Positions 3,721 through 52,127 of a stretch of 64,000 bases of DNA are shown one piece after another. Position numbers and translations under genes: made by a program. Source of the DNA: Nemertoderma westbladi (Eukaryota > Animalia > Xenacoelomorpha); assembly GCA_032718475.1 (NCBI GenBank), contig JAUCBJ010007002.1:1-64000 (forward strand), given 5' to 3'. The notes beneath the pieces were generated by a model that had not been told where the DNA came from, searched no databases, and saw only the letters and a program-made list of their open reading frames with translations. Positions within the stretch are counted from its first letter, which is position 1; the number at the start of each line of letters is the position of its first letter.

Positions 3721-3764
3721 TTCAACTTTATTGCTTACTGCAATAAAGAAGCTATATCCTTTAA

Positions 3765-4980
3765 TGTTCGCGCTTTTAGACCTTTGGCAGTTTAACCCGC
3801 CAAATTAGGATGTCTTCTAGATAATAAATCACCTTTTAGTCTATGACAAGTATTTGATTCACTACACTAGTCGAAACCAATCTGTGCGCGATCATTCACC
3901 CGCTGGATATTCCCGGGAGATTGGGTTCGACGGTTTAATTTTATTGCTATGTAAGCCTAATGTATTATTCGACTGACAGTATTATATAATCTCTGACAAT
4001 ATTATTCACCTTCGGGAATATTAACAGTTCCTTTAGGACGTGGCGCTTTATCTATATAAACAGAGTTATGACTTAAACTACTCATAACGATATGGCTTAA
4101 TTATAATTCACATATATGGCGCATTCTTTAGGAATTGCTTCTTTAACAGACTCACTCATACACAATGCTGCACAATACTGCACACTAATCTGCCAATCTT
4201 CACTGATTTTAGTCACATATAAAAGGAACACAGACTGACTCATGTAGGGTCTATCAAATAACATTAGATTCACTTCAAACCACTTTAACATAAGTCACAA
4301 TCTTTATTGGTAACCTTTCTCTCTTACCTTCGGTATATCAAGAATATTGGGTTTTCGGGGTTATTTCTCGTTATTCCAATATAATAATTCATCAACCAAT
4401 ATAATGAATAACCGACAACAAATAGCAGTATACAGTATCGATTGAGCAGGTAATTTTAGCAGTTTCAGCAGTTATTAAAAGCCGTGTGTCAGCAGTCAGT
4501 GTATTCCCAGATCAGTGATTCCATGAGTTAAAGGATATATGCCCTTATAATTAAACCTACTAGTGTAAGACTAAAAACTGAAAACACGGAGGTGCCAAAA
4601 GCCGGTTCTTAGGCTCTGGGCAAAAACATAACACTGAACTACTGAGTTTCTGTATATACCTCCAACACAGAGACAACAAACGCTCTGATTGGTCAACCTG
4701 AACAACGAGAGAACAAAGAAACAAAGAAACGTCGACGTGGCAATATCAGCTGCTAGCCGTCGTCATGGTAGCGACACTGTTTTCAAAGTATCCAGCTATT
4801 GCGTCACGAGATTGTGGATTATGTCCTCTAAAGTACAAATACAGTACAAATACATAAGAAATGACTTTTATGTCCTCTAAAACACCAGTACAGCAAGGAC
4901 ACGGCCTTTTTATGCCTGGCAAACCAACTACAGAGTACTTTAAGGGAAAATAACCGGCTAATTACGCAAAAGCTTTTACA
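3765..4980 (-). repeat. 5' LTR of A0 (~1216 bp)
   Basis: TG...CA termini. Very similar to the A2 LTRs over the U5 part and diverged in the middle and U3. Confidence 0.9.
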
Positions 4981-5305
4981 GTTCTCGAGTTACAACGTAA
5001 TCAGTATTTTTCAACGAAAAATGCCAAATTTTCACGTTTTTCGACTATAAAATCATCAATAACTTTTTTTCAACACAATATCTCAAAATTTCCCCAACTC
5101 ATTTTTAAGCCTACACGTATAGCTGCTACCTGAAACAAAAAACAGAATTGAAATTGGTTGAGAAATACCAAAGTAGATACAGATTATGTGAAAATAAGTG
5201 ACATTTTGAGAAAAATGGATGTTAAGTAAAAAATTTAAAAAATTTGAATACATCAAGAGCGAGTTTGATTCTGAAGGTAGAAATGGTATCTATACCCGAT
5301 ATGTC

Positions 5306-5518
5306 TGTAAAGTAGCTTGATTTAATACTACCTAGGATATTCATCCGCAGATAAGTATAACACTGATTGCAGTACTGTAGTGTGCATACATTTTGAGTTC
5401 CATATTCAACTACCGGTACTCGACTGTAATACTGAACACAGAATTACAAAGGTTAAATAAAAATATACAAAGATACATTTGGTGACTGTTTTCAGCAGTA
5501 TCAATATAGATACTTACA
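5306..5518 (+). repeat. 5' LTR of Gypsy G
   Basis: Direct repeat of 46688-46898 with ~3 differences. Confidence 0.95.
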
Positions 5519-5519
5519 T

Positions 5520-5533
5520 TGGTGACCCAGACG
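5520..5533 (+). promoter_or_regulatory. tRNA-Trp-like primer binding site of Gypsy G
   Basis: TGGTGACCCAGACG starts 1 nt after the LTR end. Confidence 0.75.
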
Positions 5534-5572
5534 ACTGAACTGAACCTTATCTACAAACCGTATATCTGCAGG

Positions 5573-5747
5573 ATGCCGTTGTATACCGATTGCAAAAAAG
5601 CTGCATTGTCTGACATTTTAAAAGCCCTAAATAGCCATGATCCAGATTTTGTCCTTCCAAAAACGAAGGCTGAAATAATAGTTTATCTGGATAAGGAAAA
5701 TCCATCCGCAGTGAAACTATTGCTCGAAAATTATCAAGCAAGAGTGA
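5573..5747 (+). pseudogene. gag: 5' end of Gypsy G gag, interrupted by A1
   Basis: Removing A1 and one TSD joins ...ENYQARV to MQTDASN in frame. Confidence 0.8.
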
Positions 5748-6894
5748 TGTAAAAGCTTTTGCGGCTATAACTAGTCATTTTTCCCGCAAAGTACTCTGTA
5801 GTTGTTTTAGAGGACATAAAAAGCCATTTTTCTGTATGTGTCCTTTGGCGGACATAACAAGCCATTTTAAGCCGCAATGCGTCAAAATACTCTTAATACA
5901 GTGTAGTTCCAATGACGAAATCTGTCAGCTGATTTGCTGACGTGGAACTTTCCCTTGTGCTCTGGGTTCTTTGTTCGGCTCAGCTAGGCTCAGCCAATCA
6001 GAGCGATTTTTATTTTTCTTGGAAAAGAGCTATGTAAGCCGGGCAAGTCTGTGTATGTGGCAGTAGTTGTGTTTACCTTTCCTGAGCCCAGAACATCGGC
6101 TTTGGAATTATCCTTAGTTTCAGACTTTAGCCAAACATTCGACGGCTTTGATTATAGAAGCGTATAACTGTTATCAAACCACACAGCAGACCCACCGCAT
6201 TATTTTACTGCTATTTACTGTCGGTTATTAATCATTATATGTGTTGATGGATATGTTGTTATATTTGGAGAATATCGATGAATAATCATAAAACCCCAAT
6301 CTTCTTGATATACTGAAGGTTAGAGAGACCGGTTACCTGTAGCAACTGCAACTTACATTACAATGGTTTTGGAGTGAATTAAATGCTATTTCACAGTCCC
6401 TACAGGTGTCAGTTGTTATTCTCTTTATATATGATCAAATTCAGTGACGGTCAGCAGGTCAGTGTGCAGTATTGTGCGGTGGTGTGCATGAGTGTGACAG
6501 ATAACAAAGCATCTCCTAAAGAATGCGCTTTATATGACAATCATTAGCCATCCCGTTGTGTTTAGTGTAAGCCATAACTCTGTTTATATACTTAGAGCGC
6601 CACGTCCTAAAGGAACTGTTAATATTTCCCGAAAGTAAATAATATTTGTCAGAGATTATATTAATGACCAATCGAATAGTACAGTAGGCCTACACCGCAA
6701 TAAGGTCAGAGCCTCTGAATCCAGTCTCCCTTAACAGTGGGTGAATGGTCGCGCATAGGCTGGTTTCAGCTAGTGTAACTTTATATCGTACATGTAACAA
6801 ATACTTGTTATATGCTAAAGTCGATTTATAAACTAAGACTAGAAGACACCTAAAATTAGCGGGTTAAACTGCTAAGAGTCTAAAAGTGCGAACA
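5748..6894 (+). repeat. 5' LTR of A1 (1147 bp); CCAAT box at 5994-5998; candidate self-primer at 6163-6174
   Basis: Direct repeat of 41060-42213 (~7 substitutions and one 7-bp indel by eye). Confidence 0.95.
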
Positions 6895-8263
6895 AGTGAT
6901 GCAAACCGATGCCAGTAACTCTACCGGTACCGGTACAATGCCGGTACCCCAAAAGTTCAGACTACCCGAATTTTATGCAAAAGATGCTAGAATCTGGTTT
7001 CATGCTTCTAAAAAGTCCAATCTTCTAGCCGCTCTGCCGACGGAAACTATTTTAGATGCTGGCGTTAACGTGCTAGATTCGTTTGAGACAATTAAGCAAA
7101 ATATAATATCTCATCTTGCTGATAGTGATGACCGCCGACTGCGTCAGTTGCTTGCGGCCCAGGAGTTGGGTGATAGAAAACCATCTGCAGCACTCCGACA
7201 GATGACTCGACTGGCACCGGGTAACGAACAAATTGTGCGATTACGTTTTTTGGAAATTCTACCCCAAACTGTGGGAATAGTTCTCAGTTCGCTCGATAAA
7301 CTCTCGTTGGACGATCTTGCAGAAGTGGCTGACAAGATGGTAGAACAGCAGCAGTTTCAAAACACTGCGAGTTTCTCAACATCATCCTCTACTAACTCAA
7401 ACCCAATTTCTCGAGTTTCTGATTCGACGATTCCAGATTCGCAGCGTCTACTGTGGCAATCTCAACAGGCGCTGACAGAACAGGTCGCACAAATTGCTAG
7501 CCAACTTTGCGATTTGACAAATCAAAGTCGTAGTAGATCGCGTTTGCGTTCGCGTCCGGGATATAGGAGCCGGAGTTATTCTCAACATCGGGGGTCGGAC
7601 TTGCGGACAAGTCGGTCGAGAGAGAGAAACCCGCAACCCCGACAATACGATACGAGAGGACCGTGGTGTGAGCAACATTTCCTTCATCGTTCGGAAGCCC
7701 CAAGTTGCATACCACCATGCTCATTCCGCCAGTCCTCATCGCGACGACATCCGATCAGAGGCGATAATAATGGAGATTCGGGATCGGTTAACGCAGTCCA
7801 CATTTCGGCGTCGCCTGTAGGTCAGTTCCTAGTAGATTCTGGTAGTGACTTCTCCATACTTCCCCAGATGTATGGAAAATATTTAAGCGATAAGTGGCCC
7901 TCAATGAATATAAATTTAACAGCCGCAAATTTGTCTAAAATCCCAACTTTTGGGGAAGGTTTATTGCGTTTTGAGTTGCCATGTTTAGGCAATAAAGAGT
8001 TCTCTTGGCGGCTTATTTTAGCAGAAGTTAGCCAACCTATTTTGGGTCTTGATTTTCTGCAAGCCCATAATATTAGTATCGATTGTAGATCCAAACAAAT
8101 TTATGTGCAAGTAACTTCAGATAATGGTTTACAAAGTGGTAGTATCAATTCTATATCCAATTCTCAATGTTCAGCAGACAATTTCTGGTTTGAAACTGTC
8201 TTTAAATTAGGCAGCAAAACATTGGTTTTGTGTTTATTGACAGTATTATCCATATTGTTGAAT
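6895..8263 (+). repeat. gag: Ectopic duplicate of Gypsy G gag-protease (copy of ~42214-43592), open reading frame 6896-8275
   Basis: Near-identical sequence. Encodes LPEFYAKDARIWF, DRKPS, the CHCC motif and the FLVDSGS protease. Followed by filler DNA and a 124-bp repeat of the LTR end (8306-8429). Confidence 0.92.
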
Positions 8264-8429
8264 CGTATTTGTTGAATAGTGTAACTTTATTGTTGAATTG
8301 TTGAATAGTGTAACTTTATATCGTACATGTAACAAATACTTGTTATAAGCTAAAGTCGATTTATAAACTAAGACTAGAAGACACCTAAAATTAGCGGGTT
8401 AAACTGCTAAGAGTCTAAAAGCGCGAACA

Positions 8430-8441
8430 ATAACAGTTATA
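8430..8441 (+). promoter_or_regulatory. Non-tRNA primer binding site of A1 (ATAACAGTTATA), complementary to LTR 6163-6174
   Basis: Directly after LTR end GAACA; no TGG; perfect 12-nt reverse complement within its own LTR. Confidence 0.75.
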
Positions 8442-9944
8442 TCTTTTCTTTATTGCAACGTAGGCAGTAAAGTCGAAAAGTACCGGTCGACCGGTAACCA
8501 GTAGGCCTAACTACCTAACCACCCGAACCGGTACTTACAGCAGTACAGGTACATCAGTATTATTCGATTTTGATAATTATATACCGGTAGGTCTTGATAT
8601 TAATCAGGGATGCCTGGTTTTTATTGGGATTTTACTTATTTCTGTCAGTTTTATTTATCTGTAAGTGTAATATTGAGCAGAGGTCGTGTAAGCCTGCTCA
8701 GATTGTATAGATAATTGTAGGCTGGACTGTTGTCTGACTGTTGTTGGGTCTGGAGAGATTGCGGCGTGTGTGGAGTTTGTCCGATAAAGTGCCAGTTAGT
8801 AAGTTGGGGCAGCCAGAGCTGTAAGGTAAATCCCCCCCGAAAGAATAAGTCGTACTACTCGGTTAGAACGCATACTAACTAACCATTTCGGAGTCTGCAT
8901 ATACTGTAGTTTATTTAGGCTTGACAGTAGTCTGCCATCGTTTGGTCTGTATTTTGTTTGTGTAGTCTGTACGGGTAGCGTAATATTTATTATTCAGAGT
9001 TTATGCAAGTATTCGCAACCTTCAAACTCCCCAAGTTTATTCCTACAGTAATTGTGCTTGTTATACATACCGTTATAGTTAAATTAACCCCGGTACTACA
9101 TCAGGGCTGCTCGGCGTAGGTAAAGACCGGCGATTTTATGCGCTAGTCACTCCAGCAGATGCCGTGGTTCTTTTAGCTGTTCAAGTATATTTAACTGCTG
9201 GTTATTTGTTATACAAGTACTTGTACCTAATCTAGGGTTTAGTTTACAATACTTTCCGAGAGTAATTAGTTTGTGGGCAGTATATTTGTGTTGTAAAGTG
9301 GTTAATAGGCACGTTAGCTCTGGTAGGCTGCGGTAATTAACTTCTAGGTAGGGACACTCCGGGTACATAACGTATTACTTTTAGTGCTGTAAAGCAAAAG
9401 GCTATAAGTCGTCAGACGGTGGTATTTTCTTATCTGGACAACACAGTGTATTTACTACTGCTTAATTATTTTCAAATACCGTAGTATCCTGTCCGTTAGT
9501 AATAACCAGAAATTCTAACTCCCTGTTAGACTGGTTTGTAGATTCCCTGTAAAATTACCCTAAAATTTGTACGTGTAATTTGTTATTGTTTATTTAGAGA
9601 TTGTAATCTCACCCAATAATTGGAAGTAATTAGTAGTGATAAGTAACTTAGTAAAGTACAATTATTTGTTTTAGTGTCCAACAGGTAGCACTCCACTGAG
9701 AGCGTTTAGCTTCTGTGTAGTGAACCCTTAACCAGAAACAATAACATTTGTTTCAAATATTGGCAAATCCCATTGTACGGGTATATATATTATAAATCAA
9801 CTCAAACCGATTTTTTAAATAGTAGGCCTGTCATCCATCAATTAGGTCTTAATATCAGTTGGACTACTGCTTAAATAACGGTAATAAAGTAACGTAAAGT
9901 AACCAAGTAACCCTAAAATTCAGAAATTCAATTATTCTAAAATA

Positions 9945-10245
9945 ATTGATATACCGGTATTTACGATAGGCTTATTATATTTATTTCTATAAACTTATGC
10001 TGAAATCATATACCGGTATTCTGTAATTAATTTAGTCTATAATCATACTTATATATACTATAAGTGTAAACTGTATACCGGTATTCACGGTAGGCTTATT
10101 ATATATTAATATATTTACGCTGAATTATATACCGGTATTTTTGTGACAAACCCTAGTCTGTAATAATACTTATACTATAAGTGTATACCGGTATTTTAAT
10201 ATATTGTATATATATCACGTTACACTGAGTAACGATATCGGTAAT
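9945..10245 (+). repeat. Degenerate ~60-65-bp AT-rich minisatellite with a TACCGGTA core, upstream of gag (homologues at 1470-1890 and 27450-27750)
   Basis: Recurring ataccggtat units. Confidence 0.7.
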
Positions 10246-10332
10246 TAATTACTAGGCTTTTAGTTGATACTGAATTACTGGACTTGCTTTAACTGTAGTT
10301 CTAGCAGTAGGCATTCAACTGTACAAACAAAC

Positions 10333-13300
10333 ATGGCTGACACAAAGCAAAACCTGTCAGACAGTCTCCTGGATACAACCATCTATGACCCAGATAGGAG
10401 TGTGGAACGTTTGAGACCAAAGTTCAACTCCCCTCCTACTGTAAGAAAAGTCATCCCTCCAGTAATAGTATCAGACCCTAGGCTAGTCAAACACCGTAGG
10501 TCTATTATAGGCACTCGGGCTCAAGTCAAGCGGGACCAAGAGGCAGCTGTTAAACAGCAGCAACACTCGAGCTGAGAACTTATTTCTCAGCGGCCCGATA
10601 GCTCCAGTAGTTCAGATACTGTAGAGCTGACACCCGAGCGCGGAGCAGGGATGGCAGAAGCGGTTTATTCGGATCCACTTCTCATTCTCCCAGAAGCCGT
10701 ACTCACTAGAGTATTGATTGCGGTAGAGGAACATCAAATGGATTGGGCGAGAGGTCAGCGATCGACCAAGGACAGTTATGCGGGATACACAAAGGAGGAA
10801 CTGAAATCTATTGTCGAGACGCATGGAATTTCCCCGGATCTGGACTCCCGTTTAACTTATCAGAAGCTGCCTGGGAAGATCTATACCGGATGGGAGTGTT
10901 AATGGACACTAGAGATCCAGCTGTGTGGAAGAGGTCGGCAGCAGGATATGTGCAGAGATTCTTCAGCTCTCTGGAGCGATTAGAGGAACAACTGTTTCAA
11001 CAACCCCAAGGACCTCAAGAGCAGGGAGAGCTGCTTTATCAAGTTCGCGAACGAGTTCTGCGGATCAGACTAATTCTTTCAGCCTTTGAGGAGGCCTCGA
11101 AGAGAATCCAAGATACGTCGTTGCAAGTTGCTGTGAAGACTTGGTTCCAGCGCGTAGATCTCAAAGTTCAAGGAATGGCCCAGTGGAAATTTCAGCTGGC
11201 TGAGCGCTCGACTCAAGGAGAATCAACCGACGCTGTCTTTTCTCAAGTGGAAAGCAAAGTGACGGCAGAAAAACCACAGAGGGATGCAATTGACATCTAT
11301 CTGTCGGACTATCAACGATTTATAGGTGACGAAGAGTTAAGGAGACATTTAGATGGACTTCGTCCTAATAGTGAAGGAGCCAAGTTGGTGTTGGACGCAA
11401 TAGATGCGGAAATGTTAGCTGCGATCCAAGCTAAATTTGATGAAAGCATCCGCATCGCTAGGGTTCAAGAAGAACAAGTAAAGAAAAAACGTCTAGAAGA
11501 CAGAAAGATAGCAGCAGCGGCAGCGGCAGAGGCAGAAGCGGAAAGAAAAGCGGCAGAAGTGGAAAGAAAAGCGGCAGTGGCAGCGGCAGAGGCAGAAGCG
11601 GAAAGAAAGGTGGCAGAAGCAGAAAGAAAAACGGCAGCAGCGGAAAGAAAGGCAGCGGCAGAAGCGGATAGAAAAACGGCAGAAGCGGAAAGAAAGGTAG
11701 CAATAGCAGAAGCAGAACGGAGGGCGTCTGAAGAGACCGCCCAACTTGAGTTGGAAAATCTTCAAGAGAAGCAAGACTTCATCGATAAACAGAGAACAGC
11801 GAGTCAGTGGCAGATGATAAGTAAATCTACTCCCAAAAGACAAGGATTTACATCATCCGATGAAGGCGACACCACTGATCCTGAAGGTGGAGGAAATAGA
11901 TCTCGTTCCAGTAGGCGTAGAAGAACGCCCCATCGTCAGAAATTGCCTAATTTGCCACCAGCTGTGAGAAGGCAACTATCTAGCATAGACTTAGGTAGTA
12001 CAGAACCCACAGACCAAATTATTAGAATAAAAAGACTCCCTACTATAATAGATGAGCCTGAAATAATTAGGCCTGTTCTCGAAGACACCCCTTTGGTGAT
12101 AGAGACACCTGTACTTCCAGAACCTACCTCTAAATTCCCTTTGCACAGTACTAAACTACCTGTGCCCAGTAGGACTGTTCCCGAGTCCGAACCCGTCCTG
12201 GACGCCGAGCGAGATATCAAGAATTTATCGCCCGTCGTCTCTCGCTCGCCCGCTACTATGTTGGCGACTCCCGCTTCGGCAGTCGAGTGGGTAGCTGAGG
12301 GACGGCGGGAGATGGGTCTCTTGCTCAGGAAGCTGAGGGAACACCAGGTATGTTCATCACAGCAAGTCCGAGAGATGGAAGGGACTGTTCAGCAGTTGAA
12401 GGGAACAGTGAGAGAAAGTAGGTTAGAGTTGCAAGAAGTGCAGCAGAGTATCGCGTTAGAACGCGATAAATTGGTAAATATACAAAAGGGTATATCACCA
12501 CCCTCTGTAACAATGTGTCAACCTGTTAGGTCTGAAGTATTGCATGCGCAAGGTGTGGAACCTACACGCATCTATACTGCTAGTGAAGTAGAAACTCCTA
12601 TAGTAAACCCTATTAAGGGTAATTATAAACCTGTTGACAATGATATTCCATATAGACCTGATCATAATCCGAGAAATTTATATACCGATAACTCGATATT
12701 AAATAACACGATGGCCCAAGAAAGTTTTACGCGTCAAATGGCTAGAACCGAAGCCCGTCAAGCGGTAAAGGTGGGAGAAATCGTCAAGTTCAATGGAGAT
12801 GAGATGAAATGGTTACCTTTTAATGAATATTACAAAGATAACATACAAAACTCTGTATTATCTAATGGAGAGAAACTTAGATTCCTCATCGAGTGTTTGG
12901 AAGGACCTCCCAAGTTAATGGCGTTAAAGTTTATTGGACACCCAGATGGATTAAGACAAGTTTGGAATACGCTAAACATCAGGTATCGTAATAGGACAAA
13001 CATAGCTAGGTATTTGTATGCTAAATTGGTAGCGCCCCGAAAGTTCCTTAGTAGCGGGATTATCGAGTTTTCCAATGAGATTCAGGAGAACTGTAGACAA
13101 CTAGATTGGTTAGGTAAGTCTCATGAATATCAGAGTTCCATGGTTATTGGAGCCGTAGCCTCTACTTTGCCCAAGGGTGGAGTAGGTACTCACTGGGACA
13201 AGAAAGTGCTCTATATGATGGACCAGCAACAAAGAGACCCTACCATGGCTGATCTCATGTCATTCTTAGATGGAGAGGTAAGATTACAACTCCTAAAACA

Positions 13301-16270
13301 GTCCAGAGAGAAGACACCGGAAAATAAGGTAATTGAGAAACCCGTCTCTAGGAGAAAAGTAACACCAGTGTTTTATACAGACGATGGCAAAAGCCAAACC
13401 TCTCAGGAGGAGAGCAATGGGCGAGACACTGAAAGATCTTACTATGTCAACAAAGCACCAAAAGACGTAAGTAAATTAAAGTCTCGAACCAGTGACAGGA
13501 GAGAATATACAACAAAAACTCCTCCCACATCTCCTAAAAGAATTCATGGAAAAAAGCCCAAGGAAAGAACGAGTGTGCATAACATTACCCAAGGTAAAGT
13601 AAGTAACATCAAACCAAAATGTGTGTTGTGCGACGGGCCCCATCGTTTAAGTGTGTGTGAGGAGTTCCTAAAGAAATCCCTAAAAGATAGACGCGAAGTC
13701 ATGTGGGATAAGCGGTTGTGTTATAATTGTCTCAGACAAGGACACCAACGGCGAACCTGTTACTCCGACGCAAGGTGTGCAAAGTGCGGCGCGAAACATC
13801 ATATTTTGTTGCACACCGAATTCGAAAGAAACAGCCCGAGTCAGGTAAGTGAGCCTGAACTACATGTCCAATTCAGTGATGTGAACGACACTGACCTCAG
13901 TTCTGAGATGGAAGGATTCTACACAGATGAATTCTCCGATGAAAACGAATCCTGTTATCTAATAAACACCGCAGTGTATCGAGCACTTACGTATGAGACA
14001 GAAACTGAGAGTGAGCTTCCCCTCACTATTCCAGACCTACAACCATCTTGGAAAATGCCAACTTCCAACGTAGGAATCCGAGAATTTCCCGTAGTGCAGT
14101 TGAGAGTCCACGGCGTAAGCAAAAGTTATATAGTGAACGCCCTTCTCGACTCCGGCAGCACAGGAACATTCATCGATAAAGAACTAGCCGAAGATATCTT
14201 TGCTGGACAACCTAAGTTCCGAACTAAGTTGAACCTTTCAGGAATTATGCAGGTTTGGAAATCTACAGTAGCTACGGACTACTATGTAGGCGCTTTGTCC
14301 ACCCCCCAGGACGAACTAGGAGAACACAATATAAGGTCAGTAAAAATGGTGGCTATAAATAACTTCGCTACCAGCCAAGTGGAACCTTATAACTGGGATG
14401 AAGACGATTTCACCCAACAGTATGACATACCTAGATTCAACACAGACTACCCTGGGGTACAAATACTCATCGGCCAAAATGCGCATGAGGCGCTGGAGAC
14501 ATTAGAAAAATGGCCTACTCAACCGCAACCACTACAAACTTATGCGGGAAGAACTAGAGTAGGTTGGTACTTTACTGGCCCCTCCCGTAGGACACTCATG
14601 GAAAGGCTACCAAAGGAGCAAATTTACCAGGTGAGTGAATGGGAAGGGGAAACCAGTGAGGGAGACGACTCACTTGAGGGAATACCATACTCCTCGGATA
14701 ATGATGATATTCAACAACTATTCGACGAGGAGAATACCATCGACCTCCTTACGGAAAGTGAAACTTGGCAAAACCAAGTGAACCTGTGTCAACTCGTCCA
14801 TCCATCGAGACACGTCGATTACAACGATGAACTAAATGAAGTAATCGACCGTTACAATGCGAAGGTTCGCGATGAACACGCCGTACGATTCTTTACTCAA
14901 GAGGCTATAGAGCCCAATTCCTACGATAAGGCCCTATTGGTAGAAGAAGAAAGAGCCAAGCAGATACAGGAGACGACTACACGTTTTCTTAAGGATCAAG
15001 GTAGGTATGAGATTGGTCTGCCTTTCCGACGGCGAGAACCCAATTTTATAAACAACCGACCCTTATCAGAGAAGAGAATTGCGCAACTACATCGACGCCT
15101 TACGGCAAATACTTCAGCTAAGGAAATGTACAAGACCCAGTTGAATAAATTCATTGACAAGGGATACGCGGAGCGAGTACCGGAAAGAACACCCATAACT
15201 GAGAGAACGTACTATTTGACACATCATTACGTTCCTAAACCTGGTAAACCCAACGAAGTCCGTGTAGTATTTGATGGTTCCGCTCTCTACATGGGCCAAT
15301 CCCTTAACTCCGAGTTATTGCCAGGACCCAACTTACTCCAATCCTTGTTGGGAATACTCTTAAGATTACGACAATATTCGATTGCTTTTGCTTCGGATAT
15401 AGAAGGCATGTTCTTACAAGTTAAGGCGCTGGAAAGGGATCGCGACAGCCTACGATTTCTGTGGTGGCCTGAAGGGGACCTCAACCAGAAACCGGTGGAG
15501 TACTGGATGACCATCCAGGCTTTTGGGATCATCTCGAGCCCTTCAAACGCCTGCTCAGTAGTGCGCACCACTGCTGATGACAACCGGGACACCTTCTCCA
15601 AAGAAGTTATAGACAACATCAAACGGGATATATACATGGACGATAATTTAAAGTCCCTCCCATCGGTGGAAGAAGCCATTGATGTCGCCAAAGGAACGGT
15701 AGAGTGCTTGAAAAGAGGTGGATTTAGATTAACTAAATTCACGAGTAACTCCCGGGAATTTCTGGAATCAATCCCGGTAGAAGACCGAGGAACTAAAGAT
15801 CTAGACCTTATCAAGGACGATCTACCAGAAACTAAGACGCTTGGTTTGAAGTGGGACACGGGGAGAGATATCCTGTTTTTCCAACTAAAATAGCGAGATA
15901 ATCCCGTTCGCACCAAACGGATTTGTCTAAGTATCCTGAGCAATTATTTCGATCCATTGGGATTTATTAGCAAAGTTATATTGATTGCTCGGAGTTTAGT
16001 ACAACAAATGTGGCTTGAAAACCACTCGTGGGACGATCCACTTAAGGGAGAACTATTAAAGAAGTGGATTAAATGGGAAGATTCGCTACCTTCCATCGAG
16101 AACTTTAGTATTTCCCGTTCATATTTTGGTCATGTTCTTCCCACGTATTCCTATCAACTCCATGTGTTTGGAGATGCCAGCGACATGGGAATAGGCATAG
16201 TAGCCTACCTGAGAGTTGAAACTCCGGATGGAATTAAGGTCGACTTGGTTACCTCTAAGGCCTTGATAAA
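10333..16270 (+). pseudogene. gag-pol: A1 gag-pol part 1: N-terminal extension, Gag (DUF1759-like, zinc knuckles), aspartic protease, RT, start of RNase H
   Basis: ORFs 10264-10575, 10651-10902, 10743-15893 and 15957-16292 join through stops at 10573 and 15891 and a 1-bp deletion near 10823. Motifs CVLCDGPHRLSVC, CYNCLRQGH, LLDSGSTGTFI, DIEGMFLQV, YMDD, LHVFGDAS. Confidence 0.93.
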
Positions 16271-16541
16271 TGTAATAAAGTTATTACAGTAGATTTATAC
16301 TATTTTATACTGTATACTTCTTTTGGTGAAGGTTTGCTACCGGTACAGTGCTGATAGATGATTTATTGATTGAGAGACAAGCCAGCAAGCAGATTATTAT
16401 ATATTTAGTATTGTCTGACAGCTGACCCCTTTTCTTGTTGCTTTAGCTGACTGCCGGATGCAGTCAGCATTATGTTCGACTGAAGGCTGACTGTTGGATA
16501 CAGTCAGCACTGATATATTTGGTGTGTGTATATTCCGCACA
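16271..16541 (+). repeat. 5' LTR of B
   Basis: TGT...ACA; direct repeat of 34168-34438. Confidence 0.95.
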
Positions 16542-16939
16542 TTTTGGTGCCTGGACCCGGATCCTGTTGAATGAAGGAATATAAACGGTGTTTGGGAATA
16601 CTGTTTGGCAGTTTGGTGAATACTGCATGTTCCTTACTGCAGTACTGGACTGGAGTAATTAATCAGATAGGCTCAAACAGCAAACTGTTATATTTGGATA
16701 CGGTGAACTGCGTATTCGACGGACGTACCTGTATCTACGGTCAGACGGTTAGGCCTAACGAGCCTATTGGCCTACCTATATTCATATTGCTGTATTAGTC
16801 AGTACGGTATATAACGGTACCGGTACTGCATTTCTGCATTCGGAAATAAACTGGAACTGTGACACAACGCAAATTACGAAGTCAATCCGGCCAGAAATAT
16901 TTGTAATTTAATCTACCTAACCTAGGCCTTGTAGATAGA

Positions 16940-19270: not shown

Positions 19271-20483
19271 TGTTCGCGCTTTCAGACCTTTGGCAGTTTA
19301 ACCCGCCAAATTAGGATGTCTTCTAGATAATAAATCGCTTTTAGCCTCTGACAAGTATTTGATTCACTACACTAGTTGAAACCAATCTGTGCGCGATCAT
19401 TCACCCGCTGGATATACCCGGGAGATTGACTTCGACGGCTTAATCTTATTGCTATGATAACCTAATGTATTATTCGACTGACAGTATTATATAATCTCTG
19501 ACAATATTATTCACCTTCGGGGAATATTAACAGTTCCTTTTGGATGTGGCGCTCTATCTATATAAACAGAGCTATGACTTAAACTACATGCAACGATATG
19601 GCTTAGTTACAATTCACATATATGGCGCATTCTTTAGGAAATGCTTCGTTATCAGTCTCACTCATACACAATGCTGCACAATACTGCACACTGATCTGCC
19701 GATCTTCACTGATTTTAGTCACATATAAAAGGAACACAGACCGACTCATGTAGGGTCTATCAGATAACATTAGATTCACTTCAAACCACTTTAACATAAG
19801 TCACAATCGTTATATGTAACCTGTCTCTCTTACCTTCGGTATATCAAGAATATTGGGTTTTCGGGGTTATTTCTCGTTATTCCAAATATAATATTTCATC
19901 AACCATATAATGAATAACCGACAGTAAATAGCAGTATAACGTTATAAAAGTATGCACGACAAGACCAGCCAAGCATTGAGTAAGTTGTTAACCATTGAGT
20001 TACCCAGATAACGGATATATGTCCTTATAATTAAGCCTACTAGTGTTAGGCTAAAAGCAGAAAAGCACAAATATTCCAAAAGCCGTTCTTTCTTGGCTCA
20101 GGACTGAATGATAACACTGCCCATAAAGCATTGCGTGATTTCTAGGAAATTTCTGTACAAGAACAGTAAAAACGCTCTGATTGGTTGACTGAACTGAGAG
20201 GCACCGTAGAACAAAGAAAATTGACACGTATACAGCTCAGCTGTTAACCGTCGTCATAGTAACTACTGTTTCAAGAGGGTCTAGCTATTTTGCGTCATAG
20301 AATTGCCATAGAATCACCAACCATGTCCCCCAAAGTACACATACGGAAGAAATAGCTCTTAGGTCCTCTAAAAAACACCGATACAGCAATAATACGGCCT
20401 CTTACGCCTACTAAACCAACTACAGAGTATTTTACGGGAAAAATAAGGAAAAATAACCGGGCAATTCCGCAAAAGCTTTTACA
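19271..20483 (-). repeat. 3' LTR of A2
   Basis: Direct repeat of 29573-30785; PPT adjacent at 20484-20492. Confidence 0.95.
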
Positions 20484-21121
20484 CCGCTCCCAGAAAATGG
20501 GATTTTCAGTCTATAAAATATAAAAATCACAGTTTCTAAAACATAAAGATACTCTAAACAGTTAGTTTTTCTTGCGCGGACGGCGTTCACGCAGTTTCCC
20601 GAGGCTAGCAAGAGTCCTTTTCTCTTTGGGGCGAGCCACTTTACTAGAAAGGCTATAACTCCTGGGTAAAGGGTGCAATACAATTGCATTAGAAGGTTTG
20701 GGTTTACGGTCGGTGTCTCGTCCATTTCGATATGCTTCTCCTCGAGCTGATTTTCCTCCGCTTGTCATGGGATACGTTCGTCCAAAACTCTCGCAGAGAA
20801 TAGGGTTTTCTAAGCTTGATATCTTCTTAGAGATTCGAGATTTCCCGATCGAACTGAGATAAGGCCAATTCGTTTATCGATTGGACTTACTGTTATAACT
20901 TACGTTTATCTGAACAAACGCAGGTTTCTTTTTTGATCTTTATAGAATAGCGTTTAATTCGTTTCGTACAACGCTCTCCTTCACCTTGATGAAGGGTTGT
21001 ATCGCGTTAAACGGGGACGACCATACGGTTGGATAGTGATATTAGGTGTCCGCGTCACAATCCGGCTAGGTAAGATGGGCGGCTAGCTAGAAATCACTGT
21101 CGGAGTGTTACCGATTAATTG

Positions 21122-22018
21122 TTAGGGTAGCACTAGATCTTTGAACAGTGAATACAGTCCGCGAGGATCCGCGACACCACCAGGATCGCAGGTCTGAGGT
21201 CCAACTAAGGAATGAGGAGGTTTGACTGAGTATTCCGGGACTCTGATCGTAGGTTTACTCCAGGATCGTTCGAGCCGAGTGAGCATAGGTGACAACGTTT
21301 CCGTGGATGTTTATGTCTTTCCGTTTATTGGCTGGGTCTAGGGCATTTATCGTAATAATACCAAAGACGCACGTCTTGAAGGGGAAACGCGGGTGATCGC
21401 TCTCCAGTTTTACAATATTCCTCCATCTGTTCGAAGCTATCTGGAACGACAGGTAGCGGTCGATCGGCGGTAAGATACATCATCGTAAAATAGAGCCGTT
21501 TGAGTTCCATCATAGAGTCTGGATGTATACCTTGAGGATATCGAGTTTCGAGGTTTTGTTGACTGGCAATATTGAGATAGGTCTCTCTTAGGAATTCTAG
21601 ATAGTCGTTGAAGTCGCGACGTTTATCAGGTTCTTCAACGTCTTCCCTCTCGAGTCTGTTTCAAATAGAGTTCTCGTGTTCTATTCTCGATTTATCGTTT
21701 CGACTCCGCTGGGTATGATATTTAAATAAAACCATTTCCCTTTCGGTGTCTATATCGTCGGTGTCGTGTAAATCAATAGGATGACCAGTAGTCAAGAAGT
21801 CCATATACGTACCATAACGATGCGTATAGCGAGCGGTGAATTTTCCATAGTCCAACTCACGCGTAAGTTACTTCCAGGAAATCGTAGGTTCGATATAACG
21901 ACCATCATCCTCCGTAGTAGTTGGACTAGTATCACCGCGTATCAAGCTATCAACAAACGCTTGAAAGTAGAGTATATCGCTCCCTGATACCAAGACCATC
22001 TTCTATCAACTCCGTCAT
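21122..22018 (-). pseudogene. A2 copy of the extra 3' ORF (stops, indels)
   Basis: ORF fragments 21661-21855 and 21325-21513 translate to near-identical peptides to A1 39594-40271. Confidence 0.65.
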
Positions 22019-23668
22019 ATCTGCTATATATGAGTTTATTAATATTATAATGAGTTTATATTTAGGCTAGCGAGCGTCGCTGCCTACCCCAATCAGCCCC
22101 CGGACAGTGCGAGATCCTCAGCGCCGATGTGTCGTCGCCGCTGTACTTTCGCCAACGACGTAGCCACACAACGACAACGACAACCGGCACAAGTCACTCG
22201 ACTGTCCGTCCCAAAGGCTTAGATACACCTCAGGTTCTTACTGGAGAGTTAGGGTTACTTTCACAATTGCGACTCGCTACTGTAAACACACCTTAGTAGT
22301 AACATTCGCCTATAAACTCACAAATACCACACACACAACTTGTCACAAATTACACACTCGGGTCACTTGTCCGTTAGTCAGTGCCTTCCAGAATGTCACG
22401 TTATTATCATGTATCCTTGGATACTAGCAGTGCGCTATTTATTCCCTATGCTATTCAATGGGACAAGCTTTCTATTGTTCTTTTAACTCAATTCTAATTC
22501 TAGCGTGGTTGTTGCTATGGTGACATTATGCAAAGCTAGCGGTAGAATTAGGGTAATTCCAAAGCATACAGATCTGGGATGTTATTTAATAGTAATTCTT
22601 TAATGGTCAATGTCCTGTTTTATACATGGCTTTATGAATTTTATCGGCTATTGACTATGTTTGGGAGACTTTCGCACACTCATACGCATAAGAAGATAAA
22701 TCTCCGCTCCCTTGATCTATTAATTAATGGAATTTTGGGAATGTTATAAATTGCGTAAAAATGGCAATTTATTAAATTCATTAAAAGGCATGAATTTAAA
22801 TTTATTCCCTGAAATTTTATTATTTGATAATTAAATTGACATGTTTTGATTCTAGAACATGTCTGGGGACACAAGATCCTTAATTCTATGAAAATTGTCT
22901 TTTTAAGAATATCGGTAAATGCTACGATGTCTTAATTGACTAGAATTGTTGAAGGATCTGAATTTTACAGATTTTGATTTATTAGATTTGCAAATATTAA
23001 ATAATTAATATTTGAGATGGGCACCGATTTATTCCAGAACTTGTCTGGGGACGTTAACCACTGATTCTAGAATTTGTCTTTCAAGTATATCGGTGGGTGC
23101 CGCGATATCTTAATCGACTAGAATTACAGATGGTCAAAAGGTTTAACAGATTTATTTGCGTTTCACGCTACTGTTAGAGGGACATCACGCTACTATATGT
23201 ATTATTTAATATACGGTATGAGAGCAATATCGCACGAAGCAATGTCAGTGTGAAGAGGCAAGTCGTTTCCAAGGTCTACCCAGAGCTTGGTTTAGCCGAG
23301 ACACGAGGATCTGAACTTTGCATTCCTAATACTCTGCCTACCAATAATACTTGAATATAGTAGTGGCTTTATTGTACTTTAATAAGTACGGACATTTCAT
23401 CTTACTGTAGTTACGTATTTATAATATAACACGGACAGTAAGGAAAGAGAAAAATACTTGTTTCTCACCGTCACACTAAATATAATATAAGTAATTACGT
23501 ACGCAATAAACACGAATATATTGCACTATTCTACTAAATAATCGCTAAATAATATTCTACTAAATTAAATAAAACGATTATAATAAAATTACATAGTAAT
23601 ACATACAGAAATATAAAAATAATAAAATAATATAAAATAATAGAGTCACACACCCACTCCATATGTTG

Positions 23669-25030
23669 TTACGTTATGGAGTCCCTAGATGTTTGAAGGA
23701 TTAGGGAGGTGGTCGTGGGAAGAGAATCTTGCCTTCCACAGTTTCCGGAGAGTCCTCCATTCCCTTCCGGTAAACACAAACGACCGACTGGGTGATTGAG
23801 TCGCTGCATCCCGAATACAATTCCAGGTTTCCTCTTCGTCCTGGAATAGTGACGATAGAAACATCGCTCTAGGTACACGACGGCCTTACAAAGCCGATTC
23901 CAGGAGCTATAGTGGTCCGTCGCTCCCTGCAGGAGAGGTGAGAGTCCCTGCGAGACGTCTGATGTTCCAGAGCTCCAATCGCTCTCTCTGATCTTCATGA
24001 AGGATCCACTCGCGGTGGGGAGGTCCAGATCCACGGCGTCGTCCCTGGCAATATGTAATACCGACAGATCTATCCCGGGTTCAAATAACTCCGATCCACC
24101 CGTCCGGGTTTTAGGTTTGACTTTCTCCGCTCCCTTGGCTGGTCTAATCTCAGTCGGAGTAAGATGGGGAGGCCATTCATCCTCCTTACTCAGGAAGTCG
24201 GGTTCACCTAACCGGTCTGTAGTATCTGTCAGTTCTTGAGGAGTTGCTCCTCTGGAAGCGATGTCAGTTGGATTAAACTTCTTGGGGCAATATCTCCATT
24301 GATCTACATTGGAGCTAATATCGTCATTATCTGAGGAGTATGGTGTTCCCTCAGTTGGGTCGTCTCCCTCACTAGTATCATCTTCCCATTCACTCACCTG
24401 GCAGACGCGATCTTGAAGCAGTCTTTCTCTGAGCGTTCTTCGGGAAGGTCCAGTAAGGTACCAACCTACTCTAGTTCTTACCGCATAGGTCTGAAGTGGT
24501 TGCGGTTGAGCAGGTCGTTTCTCCAATGTCTCCAGCGCCTCATGCGCGTTTTGACCGATTAATATTTGTACTCCAGGATAATCGGTGTCGAATCTAGGAA
24601 TGTTAAGTTGTTGGGCATGATCATCTTCGTCCCAATTATAAGGTTCCACTTGGGTGGTAGCGAAGTTCTTTATTGCCACCATTTTGACTGACCTTATACT
24701 GTGTTCTCCTAGTTTATCCTGTGGAGTGGACAACTCACCTATATAATAGTCGGCAGCCACAGCAGATTTCCAAACCTGCATGATCCCTGACATGTTTAGC
24801 TTGGTTCGGAACTTGGGTTGTCCAGCAAAGATGTCTTCGGCTAGTTCTTTATCGATGAATGTTCCTGTGCTGCCGGAGTCCAGGAGGGCGTTCACTATAT
24901 AGCTCTTCTGAGGTCCGTGGACCCGTAACTGGACTACAGGAAATTCTCGGATTCCTACATTTGAAGTTGGCGCTTTCCAAGATTGTTGTTGATCTGAAGT
25001 AGTTAGAGTGAGGTCACTTTCTGTATCTTT
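23669..25030 (-). pseudogene. pol: A2 protease fused through deletions to an RNase H/linker remnant and the integrase C-terminal tail
   Basis: ALLDSGSTGTFI. SSDNDDI jumps to DQWRYCP..NPTDIASRG. RKPGI..LNHPVGRLCL matches A1 37650-37809. Confidence 0.88.
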
Positions 25031-25031
25031 T

Positions 25032-27361
25032 TCATACAGTGAGTGCTCGATACACTGCGGTATTTATCATGTAACAGGATTCGTTTTCGTCGGAGAACTC
25101 GTCCGTATAGAATCCTTCCATCTCAGATTGATCAGTGTCGTTCACATCACTGAATTGGACATGTAGTTCGGAATCACTCAACTGACTCGGACTATTTCGC
25201 TCGAATTCAGTGTGCAACAAGATATGATGTTTCGCACCGCACTTTGCACACCTTGCGTCGGAGTAACAGGTTCGCCGTTGGTGTCCTCGTCTGAGGCAAT
25301 TATAACACAACCGCTTATCCCACATGACTTCCCGTCTCTCTTTTAATGATTTCTTTAAGAATTCATCGCACATATTCAAGCGGTGGGGCCCGTCGCACAG
25401 CACACATTTGGGTTTGATGTTACTTACTTTAACCTGTGCTGTGTGGTGCACACTTGTTCTTTCCTCGGGCTTTCTTACATGAATTCTCTTGGGAGACGTA
25501 GGAGGGGTTTTTCTTACCGGTTCTCTTCTGTCATTGGGTCGAGACTTGAATTTACTTACCTGTTCTATAGGCGCTTTATTGCCATAATAAGATCTTTCAG
25601 TGTCTTTTCCGCTGTCCTCTCCTTGAGAAGTCTGGCTTTCGCCATCGTCGGTATAACACACTGGTGTTACCTTTCTCCTGGAAAGGGGTTTCTCACTTAC
25701 CTTATTTTCCGGTGTCTTCTCTCTGGACTGCTTGAGGAGTTGTAATTTCACTTCTCCGTCCAAGAATGACATGAGATCAGCCATGGTAGGGTCTCTTCGT
25801 TGTTGTTCCATCATATATAACACTGTCTTGTCCCAGCGTGTACCTACTCCACCCTTTGGCAGAGTTGATGCTAAGGCTCCTACAACCATAGAATTCTGGT
25901 ATTCATGAGACTTACCTAACCAATCTAGCTGTCTACAGATCTCCTGAATTTCGTCGGAAAACTCTATAATCCCGCTGCTAAGAAACTTTCGGGGCACCAT
26001 TAATTTTGCATACAAATACCTAGCTATGTTAGTCCTATTACCATACCTGATGTTTATTGTATCCCAAACTTGTCTTAATCCATCTGGATGTCCAATAAAC
26101 TTTAACGCCATTAACTTGGGAGATCCTTCCAAGCACTCGATGAGGAATCTAAGCTTTTCTCCGTTAGATAACATGGAGTTCTGTATGTTATCTTTGTAAT
26201 ATTCATTAAAAGGTAACCATTTCATCTCATCTCCATTGAACTTGACGATCTCTCCCATCTTTACCGCTTGACGGGCTTCGGTTCTAGCCATTTGACGCGT
26301 AAAACTTTCTTGGGCCATCGTATTATTTAATATCGAGTTATCGGTATATAAATTTCTCGGATTATTATCAAGTCTATATGGAATATCACTGTCAACAGGT
26401 TTATAATTACCCTTAATAGGGTTCACTATAGGAGTTTCTACTTCACTAACACTAACAGTATAGATGCGTGTAGGCTCCACACCTTGCGCATGAAATACTT
26501 CAGACCTAACAGGTTGACACATTGTTACAGAGGGTGGTGGTATACCCTTTTGTAAATTTACTAACTTATCGCGTTCTAACGCGATACTTTGCTGCACTTC
26601 TTGCAACGCTAACCTACCCTCTCTTACTGCTCCCTTTAACTGCTGAACAGTCCCTTCCAACTCCCGGACCTGCTGGGAGGAACATTTACAATGTTCCCTC
26701 AGCTGCCCGAGCAGGAGACCCATCTCCCATCGTCCCTCAGCTACCCACTCGACCGCCGAAGCGGGAGTCGCCAACGTAGTAGCGGGCAAGCGAGAGATGA
26801 CGGGCGATAAATTCTTAATATCTCGCTCGGCGTCCAGGATGGGTTCGGACTCGGGAACAGTCCTACTGGGCACAGGTAGTTTCGTGCTGTGCAAAGGGAA
26901 TTTAGAGGTAGGTTCTGGGAGTACAGGTGTCTCTATCACCGCAGGGGTGGCTTTGAGAACAGGCCTAATTATTTCAGGCTCATCTACTATAGTAGGGAGT
27001 CTTTCTACTGTAATAATTTGGTCTGTGGGTTCTGTACTACCTAAGTCTGTGCTAGCTAGTCTCACCGCAGGAGGCAAATTAGGTAACTTCGGACAGTGTG
27101 GCATTCTTCTACGCCTGCTTGAACGAGATTTATTACCTCTACTTTCGGGATCTCTTATATCACCTTCATCGGAGGAGGCAAATAACTGTCTTCCGATTTG
27201 TCTCCTCAAGTCTGCTTCTGCCACTGCCTCTGCCGCTTTTCTTTCTGCTTCTGCCGCTACTACTTTTCTTTCTTCTATCCTTTCAAGACACTGTCCAAGT
27301 CGAAGACTCATTCTAACACTTTTCAAAAGACTATCTGACAGTGCCCGTTTTGTGTCAGATA
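25032..27361 (-). pseudogene. gag: A2 gag with a shortened N-terminal extension; start codon position reads ATA
   Basis: 764-aa ORF highly similar to A1 Gag from RSRSSRRRR through the zinc knuckles. Confidence 0.9.
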
Positions 27362-29572
27362 TGTTTGATTGTACAGTTGAATGCCTACTGCTATATTACA
27401 GTCTAAGCAAGTCTAGTAATTCAGCATTAACTGCTAGCCTAGTAATTAATTACCGATACTGCTACTCAGTGGAGCGTGATATATATATAATATATTAGAA
27501 TACCGGTATGCTTATAGTATATATAAGTATTATTACAGACTAGGTTTGTCACAGAATGCCGGTAGGTACTTTCAGCACAAATATAAAAATATATAATAGG
27601 CCTATCGTGAATACCGGTATGCAGTTTACACTTATAGTGTATATATATAAGTATAATTACAGACTAGAATTAATTACAGAATACCGGTATAATTTCAGCT
27701 TATATTTATAAAAATAAAGATAATAAGCCTATTGTAAATACCGGTATATCAATTATTTTAGAATAATTGAATTTCTGAATTTTAAGGGCTACTTGATTAC
27801 TTTAACTTACTTTATTACCGTTATTTAAGCAGTAGTCCAACTGATATTGAGACCTAATTGTTGTATGGCAGGCCTACTATTTATAAATCATTTGAGTTGA
27901 TTTATAATATATATATACCCGTTTAATGGGTTTTGTCAATGTTTGAAATAAATGTTATTATTTCTGGGGGAGTCACTACACATAAGCTGTGCGCTCTCAG
28001 TGGAGTGCTACTTGTTAGACACTAAAACAAATAATTCTAATTTACCTAAGTTACTTAATACTACAAATTACGTACAATTCGGGTTGAGATTACAATCTCT
28101 AAATAAACACAAAAATTTAATTACAAATATACAAATACGAATTTTTAGGGTAATTTTACAAGAAGTCTACTAACCAGCCTAACAAAGGGTTAGAATATCT
28201 GGTTATTACAACGGACAGGTTACTACGGTATTTGAAAATAATAAGTAGTAGTAAATATACTGCGTTGTCCAGATAGGAAAATACCACCGCCTGACGACCT
28301 ATAACCGTATCGCTATAGGTACTACGTTATGTATCACGGAGTGTCCCTACCTAGAAGTTAATTACCGCGGTCTACCAGAACCAACGTGCCTATTAACCAC
28401 TTTACAACACAAATACACTGCCTACACACTCATAACTTTCGGAAAGCACTGTACACTAAACCCTAAATTAGGTACAAGTACTTGTATAACAAATAATTAG
28501 TAGTTAAAAATACTTGAACAGCCAAAAGAACCACGTTATCTGCCGGAGTGACCAAAGCACAAAATCTCCAGTCTTTACCTATGCCGAGCAGCCCTGATGT
28601 AGTACCGGGGTTAGTTTAACTATAACGGTATGTATAACAAACACAATTACTGTAGGAATAAACTTGGGGATATGAATGTTGCGAATAATCGCATAAACTC
28701 TGAATAATAAATATTACGCTACGCGTACAAACTACTCAAACAAAATGCAGACCAAACACTGACAGACTACTATCAAGCCTAAACAAACTACGGTATATGC
28801 AGACTCCAAAATGATTAGTTAGTATGCGTTCTAACCCAGTAGTACGACTTATTCTTTCACAGGGGGTTTACCTCACAGCACTTGAAGCCCCTACTTTCCT
28901 AACTTAGCACTTTATCGGACAGATGCTCTACACACACCGAAATTTCCTCAAACCCAACAACAGCCAGACAACTATCCAGCCTACAAATTATCTAAATAAA
29001 ATTATACGCTACCCGTACAGACTACAAACAAAGTACAGACCAAACGCTGGCGGACTCCTATCAGGCCTAAATAAACCACAGGACATGCAGACTCCGAAAT
29101 GGTTAAGTAGCATGCGTTCTAACCCAGTAGTACGACTTATTCTTTAGATGGGGGTTTACCTTACAGCTATGGCTGCCCCTACTTCCTAACCGTTCTTTAT
29201 CGGACATACACTCTGCATGCACTGCAATCCGTTCAGACCTAATCAACAGTTAGCCAACAGTCAAGCCTACAAATTATCTGTACAATCTGAGCAGCCTTAC
29301 ACGCCTTCTGCTCAATACTGGCCTACAAATAAATAAAACTGACAGAAATAAGTAAAATCTCAATAAAAAACCAGGGCGGGCCCTCCCTGATTAATTATTA
29401 AGGCCTACTGGTATATAACAATCAAAATCGAATAATACTGCTATACCTGTACTGGAAGTACCGGTTAGGACAGTTGAGCCTACGGGCCTACAGCAGTACC
29501 GGTTCAGGTTTACCGGTTGACCGGTACTTTCAACTTTATTGCTTACTGCAATAAAGAAGCTATATCCGTTAT

Positions 29573-30785
29573 TGTTCGCGCTTTCAGACCTTTGGCAGGT
29601 TAACCCGCCAAATTAGGATGTCTTCTAGATAATAAATCGCTTTTAGCCTCTGACAAGTATTTGATTCACTACACTAGTTGAAACCAATCTGTGCGCGATC
29701 ATTCACCCGCTGGATATACCCGGGAGATTGACTTCGACGGCTTAATCTTATTGCTATGATAACCTAATGTATTATTCGACTGACAGTATTATATAATCTC
29801 TGACAATATTATTCACCTTCGGGGAATATTAACAGTTCCTTTTGGACGTGGCGCTCTATCTATATAAACAGAGCTATGACTTAAACTACATGCAACGATA
29901 TGGCTTAGTTACAATTCACATATATGGCGCATTCTTTAGGAAATGCTTCGTTATCAGTCTCACTCATACACAATGCTGCACAATACTGCACACTGATCTG
30001 CCGATCTTCACTGATTTTAGTCACATATAAAAGGAACACAGACCGACTCATGTAGGGTCTATCAGATAACATTAGATTCACTTCAAACCACTTTAACATA
30101 AGTCACAATCGTTATATGTAACCTGTCTCTCTTACCTTCGGTATATCAAGAATATTGGGTTTTCGGGGTTATTTCTCGTTATTCCAAATATAATATTTCA
30201 TCAACCATATAATGAATAACCGACAGTAAATAGCAGTATAACGTTATAAAAGTATGCACGACAAGACCAGCCAAGCATTGAGTAAGTTGTTAACCATTGA
30301 GTTACCCAGATAACGGATATATGTCCTTATAATTAAGCCTACTAGTGTTAGGCTAAAAGCAGAAAAGCACAAATATTCCAAAAGCCGTTCTTTCTTGGCT
30401 CAGGACTGAATGATAACACTGCCCATAAAGCATTGCGTGATTTCTAGGAAATTTCTGTACAAGAACAGTAAAAACGCTCTTATTGGTTGACTGAACTGAG
30501 AGGCACCGTAGAACAAAGAAAATCGACACGTATACAGCTCAGCTGTTAACCGTCGTCATAGCAACTACTGTTTCAAGAGGGTCTAGCTATTTTGCGTCAT
30601 AGAATTGCCATAGAATCACCAACCATGTCCCCCAAAGTACACATACGGAAGAAATAGCTCTTAGGTCCTCTAAAAAACACCGATACAGCAATAATACGGC
30701 GTCTTACGCCTACTAAACCAACTACAGAGTATTTTACGGGAAAAATAAGGAAAAATAACCGGGCAATTCCGCAAAAGCTTTTACA
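29573..30785 (-). repeat. 5' LTR of A2
   Basis: Direct repeat of 19271-20483. Confidence 0.95.
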
Positions 30786-30790
30786 CCCAC

Positions 30791-42213: not shown

Positions 42214-42214
42214 A

Positions 42215-52112: not shown

Positions 52113-52127
52113 GGTCTGAGTCGACTC

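Follow-up and report, generated by a model that had tools for sequence, protein, structure and literature searches.

Candidate self-priming in a BEL/Pao retrotransposon family of Nemertoderma westbladi whose primer-binding site is complementary to its own long terminal repeat

Organization of the locus

The 64,000-nt window analysed here -- positions 1 to 64,000 of contig JAUCBJ010007002.1 in assembly GCA_032718475.1 of the xenacoelomorph Nemertoderma westbladi -- contains three copies (A0, A1 and A2) of a BEL/Pao retrotransposon family, here termed family A, in which the primer-binding site (PBS) complements a segment of the element's own long terminal repeat (LTR) and which is a candidate for priming reverse transcription without a host transfer RNA (tRNA). 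A1 and A2 belong to a nest of four levels, in which a Gypsy element contains A1 (5748-42213), A1 contains a tRNA-primed BEL element, and this in turn contains A2 (19271-30785; Table 1); the LTR pairs of the nested elements differ by ~0.4-1.4%. Family A LTRs read TGTAAAAGC..GCGAACA, are 1154 (A1), 1213 (A2) and 1216 nt (A0) long, and end (..GAACA) at 8429, 29573 and 3765, respectively; 5-bp target duplications are seen wherever both element ends are present. The 5' end of A1 consists of a full LTR, a 1.37-kb Gypsy duplicate, a 124-nt LTR tail and the PBS, in that order; only A2 and A0 have primer and PBS in their native, contiguous arrangement. At the single informative site the 124-nt tail carries the state of the 3' LTR, which suggests that the first A1 LTR (5748-6894) may derive from a duplicated solo-LTR allele.

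The order gag, protease, reverse transcriptase (RT), RNase H, integrase and DUF5641 is found in family A, with motifs read in translation, though the A1 coding region is also split by the nested insertions. Pfam searches of A1 matched DUF1759 (E 3.7e-10) and DUF5641 (E 2.6e-17) and, weakly and under the cut-off, Peptidase_A17 (E 7e-4); the RT gave no match to RVT_1 at E 0.001, and no chromodomain appeared in the domain search. A search with the A1 RT region returned 525 proteins, and PF05380 (the Pao peptidase/RNase H family) is present in 118 of the best 120; these 120 are 38-48% identical to A1, the named ones coming from corals, sea urchins/echinoderms, molluscs and fish. In the gene order beginning with a DUF1759 gag, the TG..CA LTRs of ~1.2 kb, the 5-bp target duplication and the polypurine tract (PPT), family A resembles Belpaoviridae/Semotivirus elements (BEL, Pao, Tas, Sinbad, Suzu). 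The profile of that family from the ICTV, the international virus-taxonomy committee, gives an 18-nt PBS for tRNA-Arg or tRNA-Gly and genomes of 4.2-10 kb, and calls BEL/Pao replication poorly understood, with tRNA priming assumed (PMC8742986). Family A, in contrast, has no tRNA-Arg/Gly site, which is why it is filed here, on the evidence of its predicted proteins, as a BEL/Pao variant that departs from the described mode of priming. Even the deleted A2 is 11.5 kb long. A2 has lost its RT, yet its LTRs are 99.5% identical (6 of 1213 positions differ) and its PBS matches its own primer; the near-identical LTRs and the missing RT suggest a recent move that relied on enzymes provided in trans.

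Complementarity between the PBS and the LTR

None of the three copies has a TGG site after its LTR. As an earlier first-pass annotation of the window had reported, the 12 nt that follow the LTR are instead the exact reverse complement of a 12-mer in the same LTR, starting at LTR position 416 (A1), 465 (A2) or 442 (A0). All six 12-mers were found where that annotation had placed them, and within the window each occurs only at LTR or PBS positions. Pairing begins at the first base past the LTR (offset 0 in A1, A2 and A0), the polarity, with the primer 3' end toward U5, was judged correct, and the four variable columns (1, 5, 6 and 8) are mirrored in the partner site, 36 of 36 pairs being Watson-Crick. 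The CCAAT box noted upstream of the 12-mer lies at 169, 165 and 153 nt in the three copies. The 12-mers occupy homologous LTR alignment columns, and each PBS matches its own LTR over 12 nt vs 5-6 nt for each sister LTR. Two of the earlier statements had to be narrowed. Poor conservation around the 12-mer holds for the hypervariable downstream side (0.12-0.44 identity) but not for a 50-column window comprising the 12-mer and its upstream flank (0.66-0.88); and the A1 sequences pair as described, but the full LTR carrying that 12-mer does not adjoin the PBS, the Gypsy duplicate lying between them.

The match could in principle be due to chance, to AT-rich low-complexity sequence or to an assembly artefact: the 12-mers are AT-rich, that of A1 is near-palindromic (those of A2 and A0 are not), the 5' end of A1 is rearranged, and other leader offsets reach matches of 9-11 nt. 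Matches of at least 12 nt arose, however, in only 2, 1 and 1 of 3000 dinucleotide shuffles for the three copies, with a Markov expectation of ~3e-4 per copy. That three different sequences at one homologous position should each match at ~3e-4, and that relatives (see below) reproduce the match against shuffled and swapped controls, leaves this explanation nearly excluded. The TGG-type BEL and Gypsy elements of the window, used as controls, have longest self-matches of 3 nt; the BEL element is of the tRNA-primed type, as the first-pass annotation had it, with a TGG site and no self-match. The PBS-LTR complementarity of family A is a real feature.

There is no conserved extension of the pairing past 12 nt across the three copies, a single G-U pair being present in A1 only. 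Pair counting on the three-row alignment, with the second helix entered one column out of register, carried no information (166 of 500 shuffles). A splice-junction primer was rejected for family A: the match is contiguous, and spliced alternatives are at best of equal length and rely on non-canonical sites. An intron ending at a TTTAG ~30 nt upstream of the 12-mer is likewise unsupported, an in-range upstream GTAAG donor being present only in A1.

Short contigs from three DNA runs of the organism match the A2 LTR in large numbers (11086, 4728 and 2421). Among the variants listed from their pile-up on A2 (40 of 183), none falls within the PBS or the 12-mer. Of the eight contig joints listed, four depart from the A2 sequence 1-3 nt beyond the 12-mer's 3' end (one contig each), which suggests that other subfamilies diverge at the predicted cut position.

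Table 1. Features of family A and control elements in the window
Feature	Position	Strand	Remarks
A0 PBS	3753..3764	-	offset 0 from LTR end
A0 5' LTR	3765..4980	-	1216 nt, TGT..ACA; element continues past left end of window
A0 candidate self-primer	4528..4539	-	LTR position 442-453
Control: Gypsy element hosting A1	5306..46898	+	TGG site at 5520; self-match absent
A1 full LTR copy	5748..6894	+	vs 3' LTR, 7 mismatches and a 7-nt indel; target duplication AGTGA
A1 candidate self-primer	6163..6174	+	LTR position 416-427
Duplicate of host Gypsy sequence	6895..8266	+	copy of 42214-43596, downstream of A1 3' LTR; post-insertion rearrangement
A1 LTR tail	8306..8429	+	last 124 nt, directly 5' of PBS
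A1 PBS	8430..8441	+	offset 0
Predicted 9-bp leader hairpin	8448..8472	+	just 3' of PBS; all three copies; one G-U in A1
A1 gag (DUF1759, CCHC knuckles), protease (DSG), RT (YMDD)	10710..15893	+	in-frame stop at end
Control: unrelated BEL/Pao element	16270..34438	+	tRNA-type TGG site 16545-16562; self-match absent
A2 3' LTR	19271..20483	-	primer copy 20008-20019
A2 gag and protease	23669..27395	-	non-autonomous; RT and the greater part of RNase H and integrase lost by internal deletions
A2 PBS	29561..29572	-	offset 0
Predicted U5 stem, A2	29573..29701	-	last ~126 nt of LTR plus terminal hairpin, directly 5' of PBS; equivalents in A1, A0
A2 5' LTR	29573..30785	-	1213 nt; 6 mismatches to own 3' LTR; target duplication GTGGG
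A2 candidate self-primer	30310..30321	-	LTR position 465-476
A1 RNase H remainder, integrase, DUF5641	34439..37806	+	disrupted by stops, frameshifts, tandem-repeat insert
A1 PPT	41052..41059	+	spacer 0 to 3' LTR; A2 tract identical
A1 3' LTR	41060..42213	+	1154 nt; primer copy 41475-41486

Related elements

Relatives were sought in metagenome contigs with an RT alignment, and the best 80 of the 532 loci confirmed in the portion scanned were taken further. A direct repeat was found in 38 of the 80; the 10 loci (9 families) with a repeat ending at a CA or TA LTR end were kept, and the other 28 were left out for contig-end truncation, assembly overlap or unclear ends. Spliced matches were permitted, with any GT as donor. 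Nine of the 10 kept loci lack TGG, and all nine match their own LTR. In eight the PBS matches an exon-exon junction inside the element's own LTR (10-15 nt, 0-3 of 300 shuffles each), seven of these matches using a GTAAG donor; in one the match is contiguous (11 nt, 0 of 300 shuffles). The tenth has a TGG site and no self-match. A blind scan found own-locus matches at 20 of 66 testable loci (18 with possible geometry and 2 with impossible) vs 14 of 792 swapped pairs, 4 of those 14 being between close kin and the scanned loci not all being independent. An open-ended scan for self-matches gave many chance matches of 11-13 nt and was superseded by these controlled tests.

One pair of loci, L033 and L030, belongs to a single family by RT. 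L033 has a 168-nt GT-AG intron inside its primer; L030 is without exactly that intron, and its primer is contiguous. L030 may be an RNA-derived or an intron-less genomic copy, and whichever origin it has, removal of the intron took place at the predicted sites.

In a quick RT tree of the 80 relatives, built without named reference elements, the spliced and contiguous types are scattered over the clade. The earlier statement that this lineage self-primes thus stands in part: the sequences support self-derived priming, but it is not peculiar to the lineage, being spread across the tree and mostly taking the form of splice-junction primers. L036 and L068 represent one TGG-site family lying among self-matching families, a hint that primer types may switch within the clade. 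No relatives were found in viral contigs with either a single RT or the RT alignment, and the LTR-end pattern of family A had 0 matches in the metagenome contigs.

Symmetry of the element ends

Given symmetrical integrase ends, a complementary block that marks the true primer junction would be expected to lie as far from the LTR end as the PPT lies from the LTR start. Of 27 loci considered, 18 had a tract; removal of 2 duplicates and 4 with ambiguous tract ends left 12 families, to which family A was added. PBS offset and PPT spacer are equal in 9 of these 13 (permutation p 0.0004; Spearman 0.71), in line with the expectation for a true junction, the two distances in family A being 0 and 0. 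End symmetry is supporting rather than decisive evidence for the junction.

Predicted RNA structure and start-site motifs

The RNA of A2 and A0 was folded over a stretch that opens one base ahead of the 12-mer and closes 80 nt beyond the PBS. The 12-bp primer-PBS helix lies within the predicted minimum-energy fold of both, closing a ~750-nt domain, with predicted pair probabilities of 0.85-1.0 except for one terminal pair at 0.42. For the three copies a U5-side duplex of -12.8 to -17.5 kcal/mol is predicted. A leader-side duplex of 8-9 bp uses a homologous LTR position in all three; it is one of 6-7 similar matches per copy and competes with the local hairpin.

Such a helix might instead be structural or regulatory, acting in packaging, dimerisation, a translation switch or the masking of the PBS, while a host tRNA fragment or other RNA served as primer. 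Half-tRNA primers are known in Ty1/copia lineages (PMC6317226), and the PBS is flanked by further conserved predicted helices. The PBS itself, however, has 4 variable positions out of 12 in the three copies and differs without any relation between related families, so that one host RNA cannot serve; a helix held by selection only should admit G-U pairs or mismatches, of which there are 0 in 36; and the start of the complementary block coincides with the primer junction expected from end symmetry. A structural or regulatory helix combined with a host primer is judged improbable.

Directly before the 12-mer, family A has a C followed by a purine. The chances that the 12-mer lies at the putative capped 5' end of the transcript are about even. 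Of 20 related families, 1 has TATA at -31 to -29 and 6 have a pyrimidine-purine step at the boundary. In 18 of these 20 the predicted primer is followed by C or G, and in 16 of 20 there is an A at -2, a pattern that possibly reflects a cleavage or start-site preference. A donor-like motif, AAG/GTWAGA, is present in R/U5 of all three family A copies (LTR +579 in A1, +651 in A2 and +654 in A0) and may serve as the splice donor of a subgenomic RNA.

The main rival to priming in cis accepts an LTR-derived primer but has it supplied in trans or cut inside a longer RNA -- from capped or processed solo-LTR transcripts, co-packaged RNA or a small-RNA pathway -- instead of by folding back of the 5' end. 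Family members are numerous and diverse in the genome, and their LTR transcripts could therefore be plentiful; a start site at the 12-mer is without motif support; and in the spliced relatives exon 1 matches only 4-9 nt, so that a match starting at the cap would imply an extremely short exon 1. Trans-priming between subfamilies, on the other hand, would give mismatched pairs, whereas each PBS matches its own LTR only, and folding predicts a stable helix in cis. On balance this route seems unlikely.

Proposed mechanism

The reading preferred here, and held to be probable, is that family A primes reverse transcription in cis with its own RNA, in the manner of Tf1, and not with a host tRNA. At the level of sequence, the case that the primer is self-derived is well supported: the match is confined to the own copy, the changes are mirrored, polarity and offset are right, the PPT end shows the same spacing, and many relatives have such a match. 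The 12-mer would pair with the PBS across ~750 nt of folded R/U5, as predicted; cleavage of the RNA at the helix's 3' end, for which the element's RNase H is the probable enzyme as in Tf1, would leave a 3'-OH directed into U5; and plus-strand synthesis would then copy the primer into the new PBS, again by analogy with Tf1, passing changes in the LTR on to the PBS. Copying of this kind would account for covariation that is exact and not wobble-tolerant. Family A would represent the contiguous, intron-less state of a clade-wide system, in which most of the relatives examined would need an LTR intron to be spliced out.

Pairing with the PBS in Tf1 involves the first 11 bases, and the RNase H cut falls between bases 11 and 12 (PMC7175516); among Gypsy elements of the Tf1/sushi group self-priming is an established mode (PMC4600332, PMC5341516, bioRxiv 2022.12.06.519325). 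Like Tf1/Tf2 of S. pombe, Tj1, Tosmo and the Tf1/sushi Ty3/gypsy chromoviruses generally, family A has no tRNA site and a PBS that abuts the LTR and complements 11-12 nt of it (PMC7175516, PMC4600332). Unlike them it is a BEL/Pao element without a chromodomain match, its primer and PBS are ~750 nt apart, its start site and primer cleavage are putative, and most of its relatives would form the primer by splicing. Family A thus appears to work like Tf1 while standing outside the Tf1/sushi group, and convergence is plausible. Self-priming has been predicted from the same type of evidence for the plant Ty1/copia TAR lineage (Houba, Osr-1) and the Tcn1 clade, where an LTR match of at least 10 bp to the region 0-5 bp past the LTR was used (PMC6317226); those are plant Copia or moss Gypsy elements, whereas family A is an animal BEL/Pao.

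Several observations weigh against the Tf1-like reading. The flanking duplexes of the three-duplex Tf1 'pretzel' (bioRxiv 2022.12.06.519325) are only partly matched, the leader-side duplex being no better than chance. Family A has no canonical TATA at -30, and transcription could start downstream, directed by a TTATA at -11 or by the TATA-like sequence with which the 12-mer opens. Its primers end in AT, AT and AA vs AC in 18 of the 20 related families. Both sites are carried by three family A copies only, the four changes fall on few branches, and the 5' end of one copy, A1, is rearranged. For the symmetry test the tract ends were placed by eye. Finally, the A1 RT forms a long branch (1.48) of unsure position, beside a TGG family and a splice-primer family.

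A wider proposal, towards which we lean only slightly, is that a large and widespread BEL/Pao branch of aquatic animals gave up tRNA priming and takes its primer from its own RNA, in most families as two LTR pieces joined by the host spliceosome to give a primer of 11-15 nt, with family A as the intron-less end state whose contiguous primer is copied into the PBS each cycle; self-priming would thus occur in all three LTR superfamilies.

Other features of the window

The family A leader is unusually long, ~2.3 kb (8442-10710 and equivalents), with repeated ACCGGT-centred palindromes and a 115-bp repeat; that of A0 has a 288-bp tandem duplication (2821-3395). An additional region resembling an open reading frame (ORF), with no Pfam match, lies between the integrase and the 3' LTR in both A1 (39498-40271, +) and A2 (21328-21867, -), and the A1 integrase region is interrupted by a 163-bp tandem array of 4.5 copies (36195-36930). 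Outside the nest are a Mutator-like transposase ORF (47019-48890, -; PF20700, E 1e-51), a 660-bp inverted repeat (49946-50604), 146 copies of TCGGC in a (TCGGC)n array (51386-52114) and a tandem array of ~1.5-kb units that runs past the right end (52911-64000), none of these with Rfam matches. Rfam and ARAGORN gave no matches on the window as a whole.

Significance

The BEL/Pao surveys PMC554778, PMC8556966, PMC6238403 and PMC3118150, in the portions of their main texts open to term search, are silent on element priming, on tRNA and on the PBS. The literature covered, including passages of PMC3601003, PMC5443660, PMC12451622 and PMC13524379, yielded no account of self-priming in BEL/Pao, nor any relevant paper on priming of C. 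elegans Cer7; most subscription journals and the Repbase reports lie outside that coverage, and an earlier description is possible. The precise primer boundaries make self-priming directly testable. If true, a tRNA-independent branch of BEL/Pao would change the description of the family and make self-priming a trait shared by Gypsy, Copia and BEL elements. PBS finders based on tRNAs would then probably miss many BEL elements, and such elements would be expected to escape control by tRNA fragments, while the splice-built primer of the relatives would tie their reverse transcription to host splicing.

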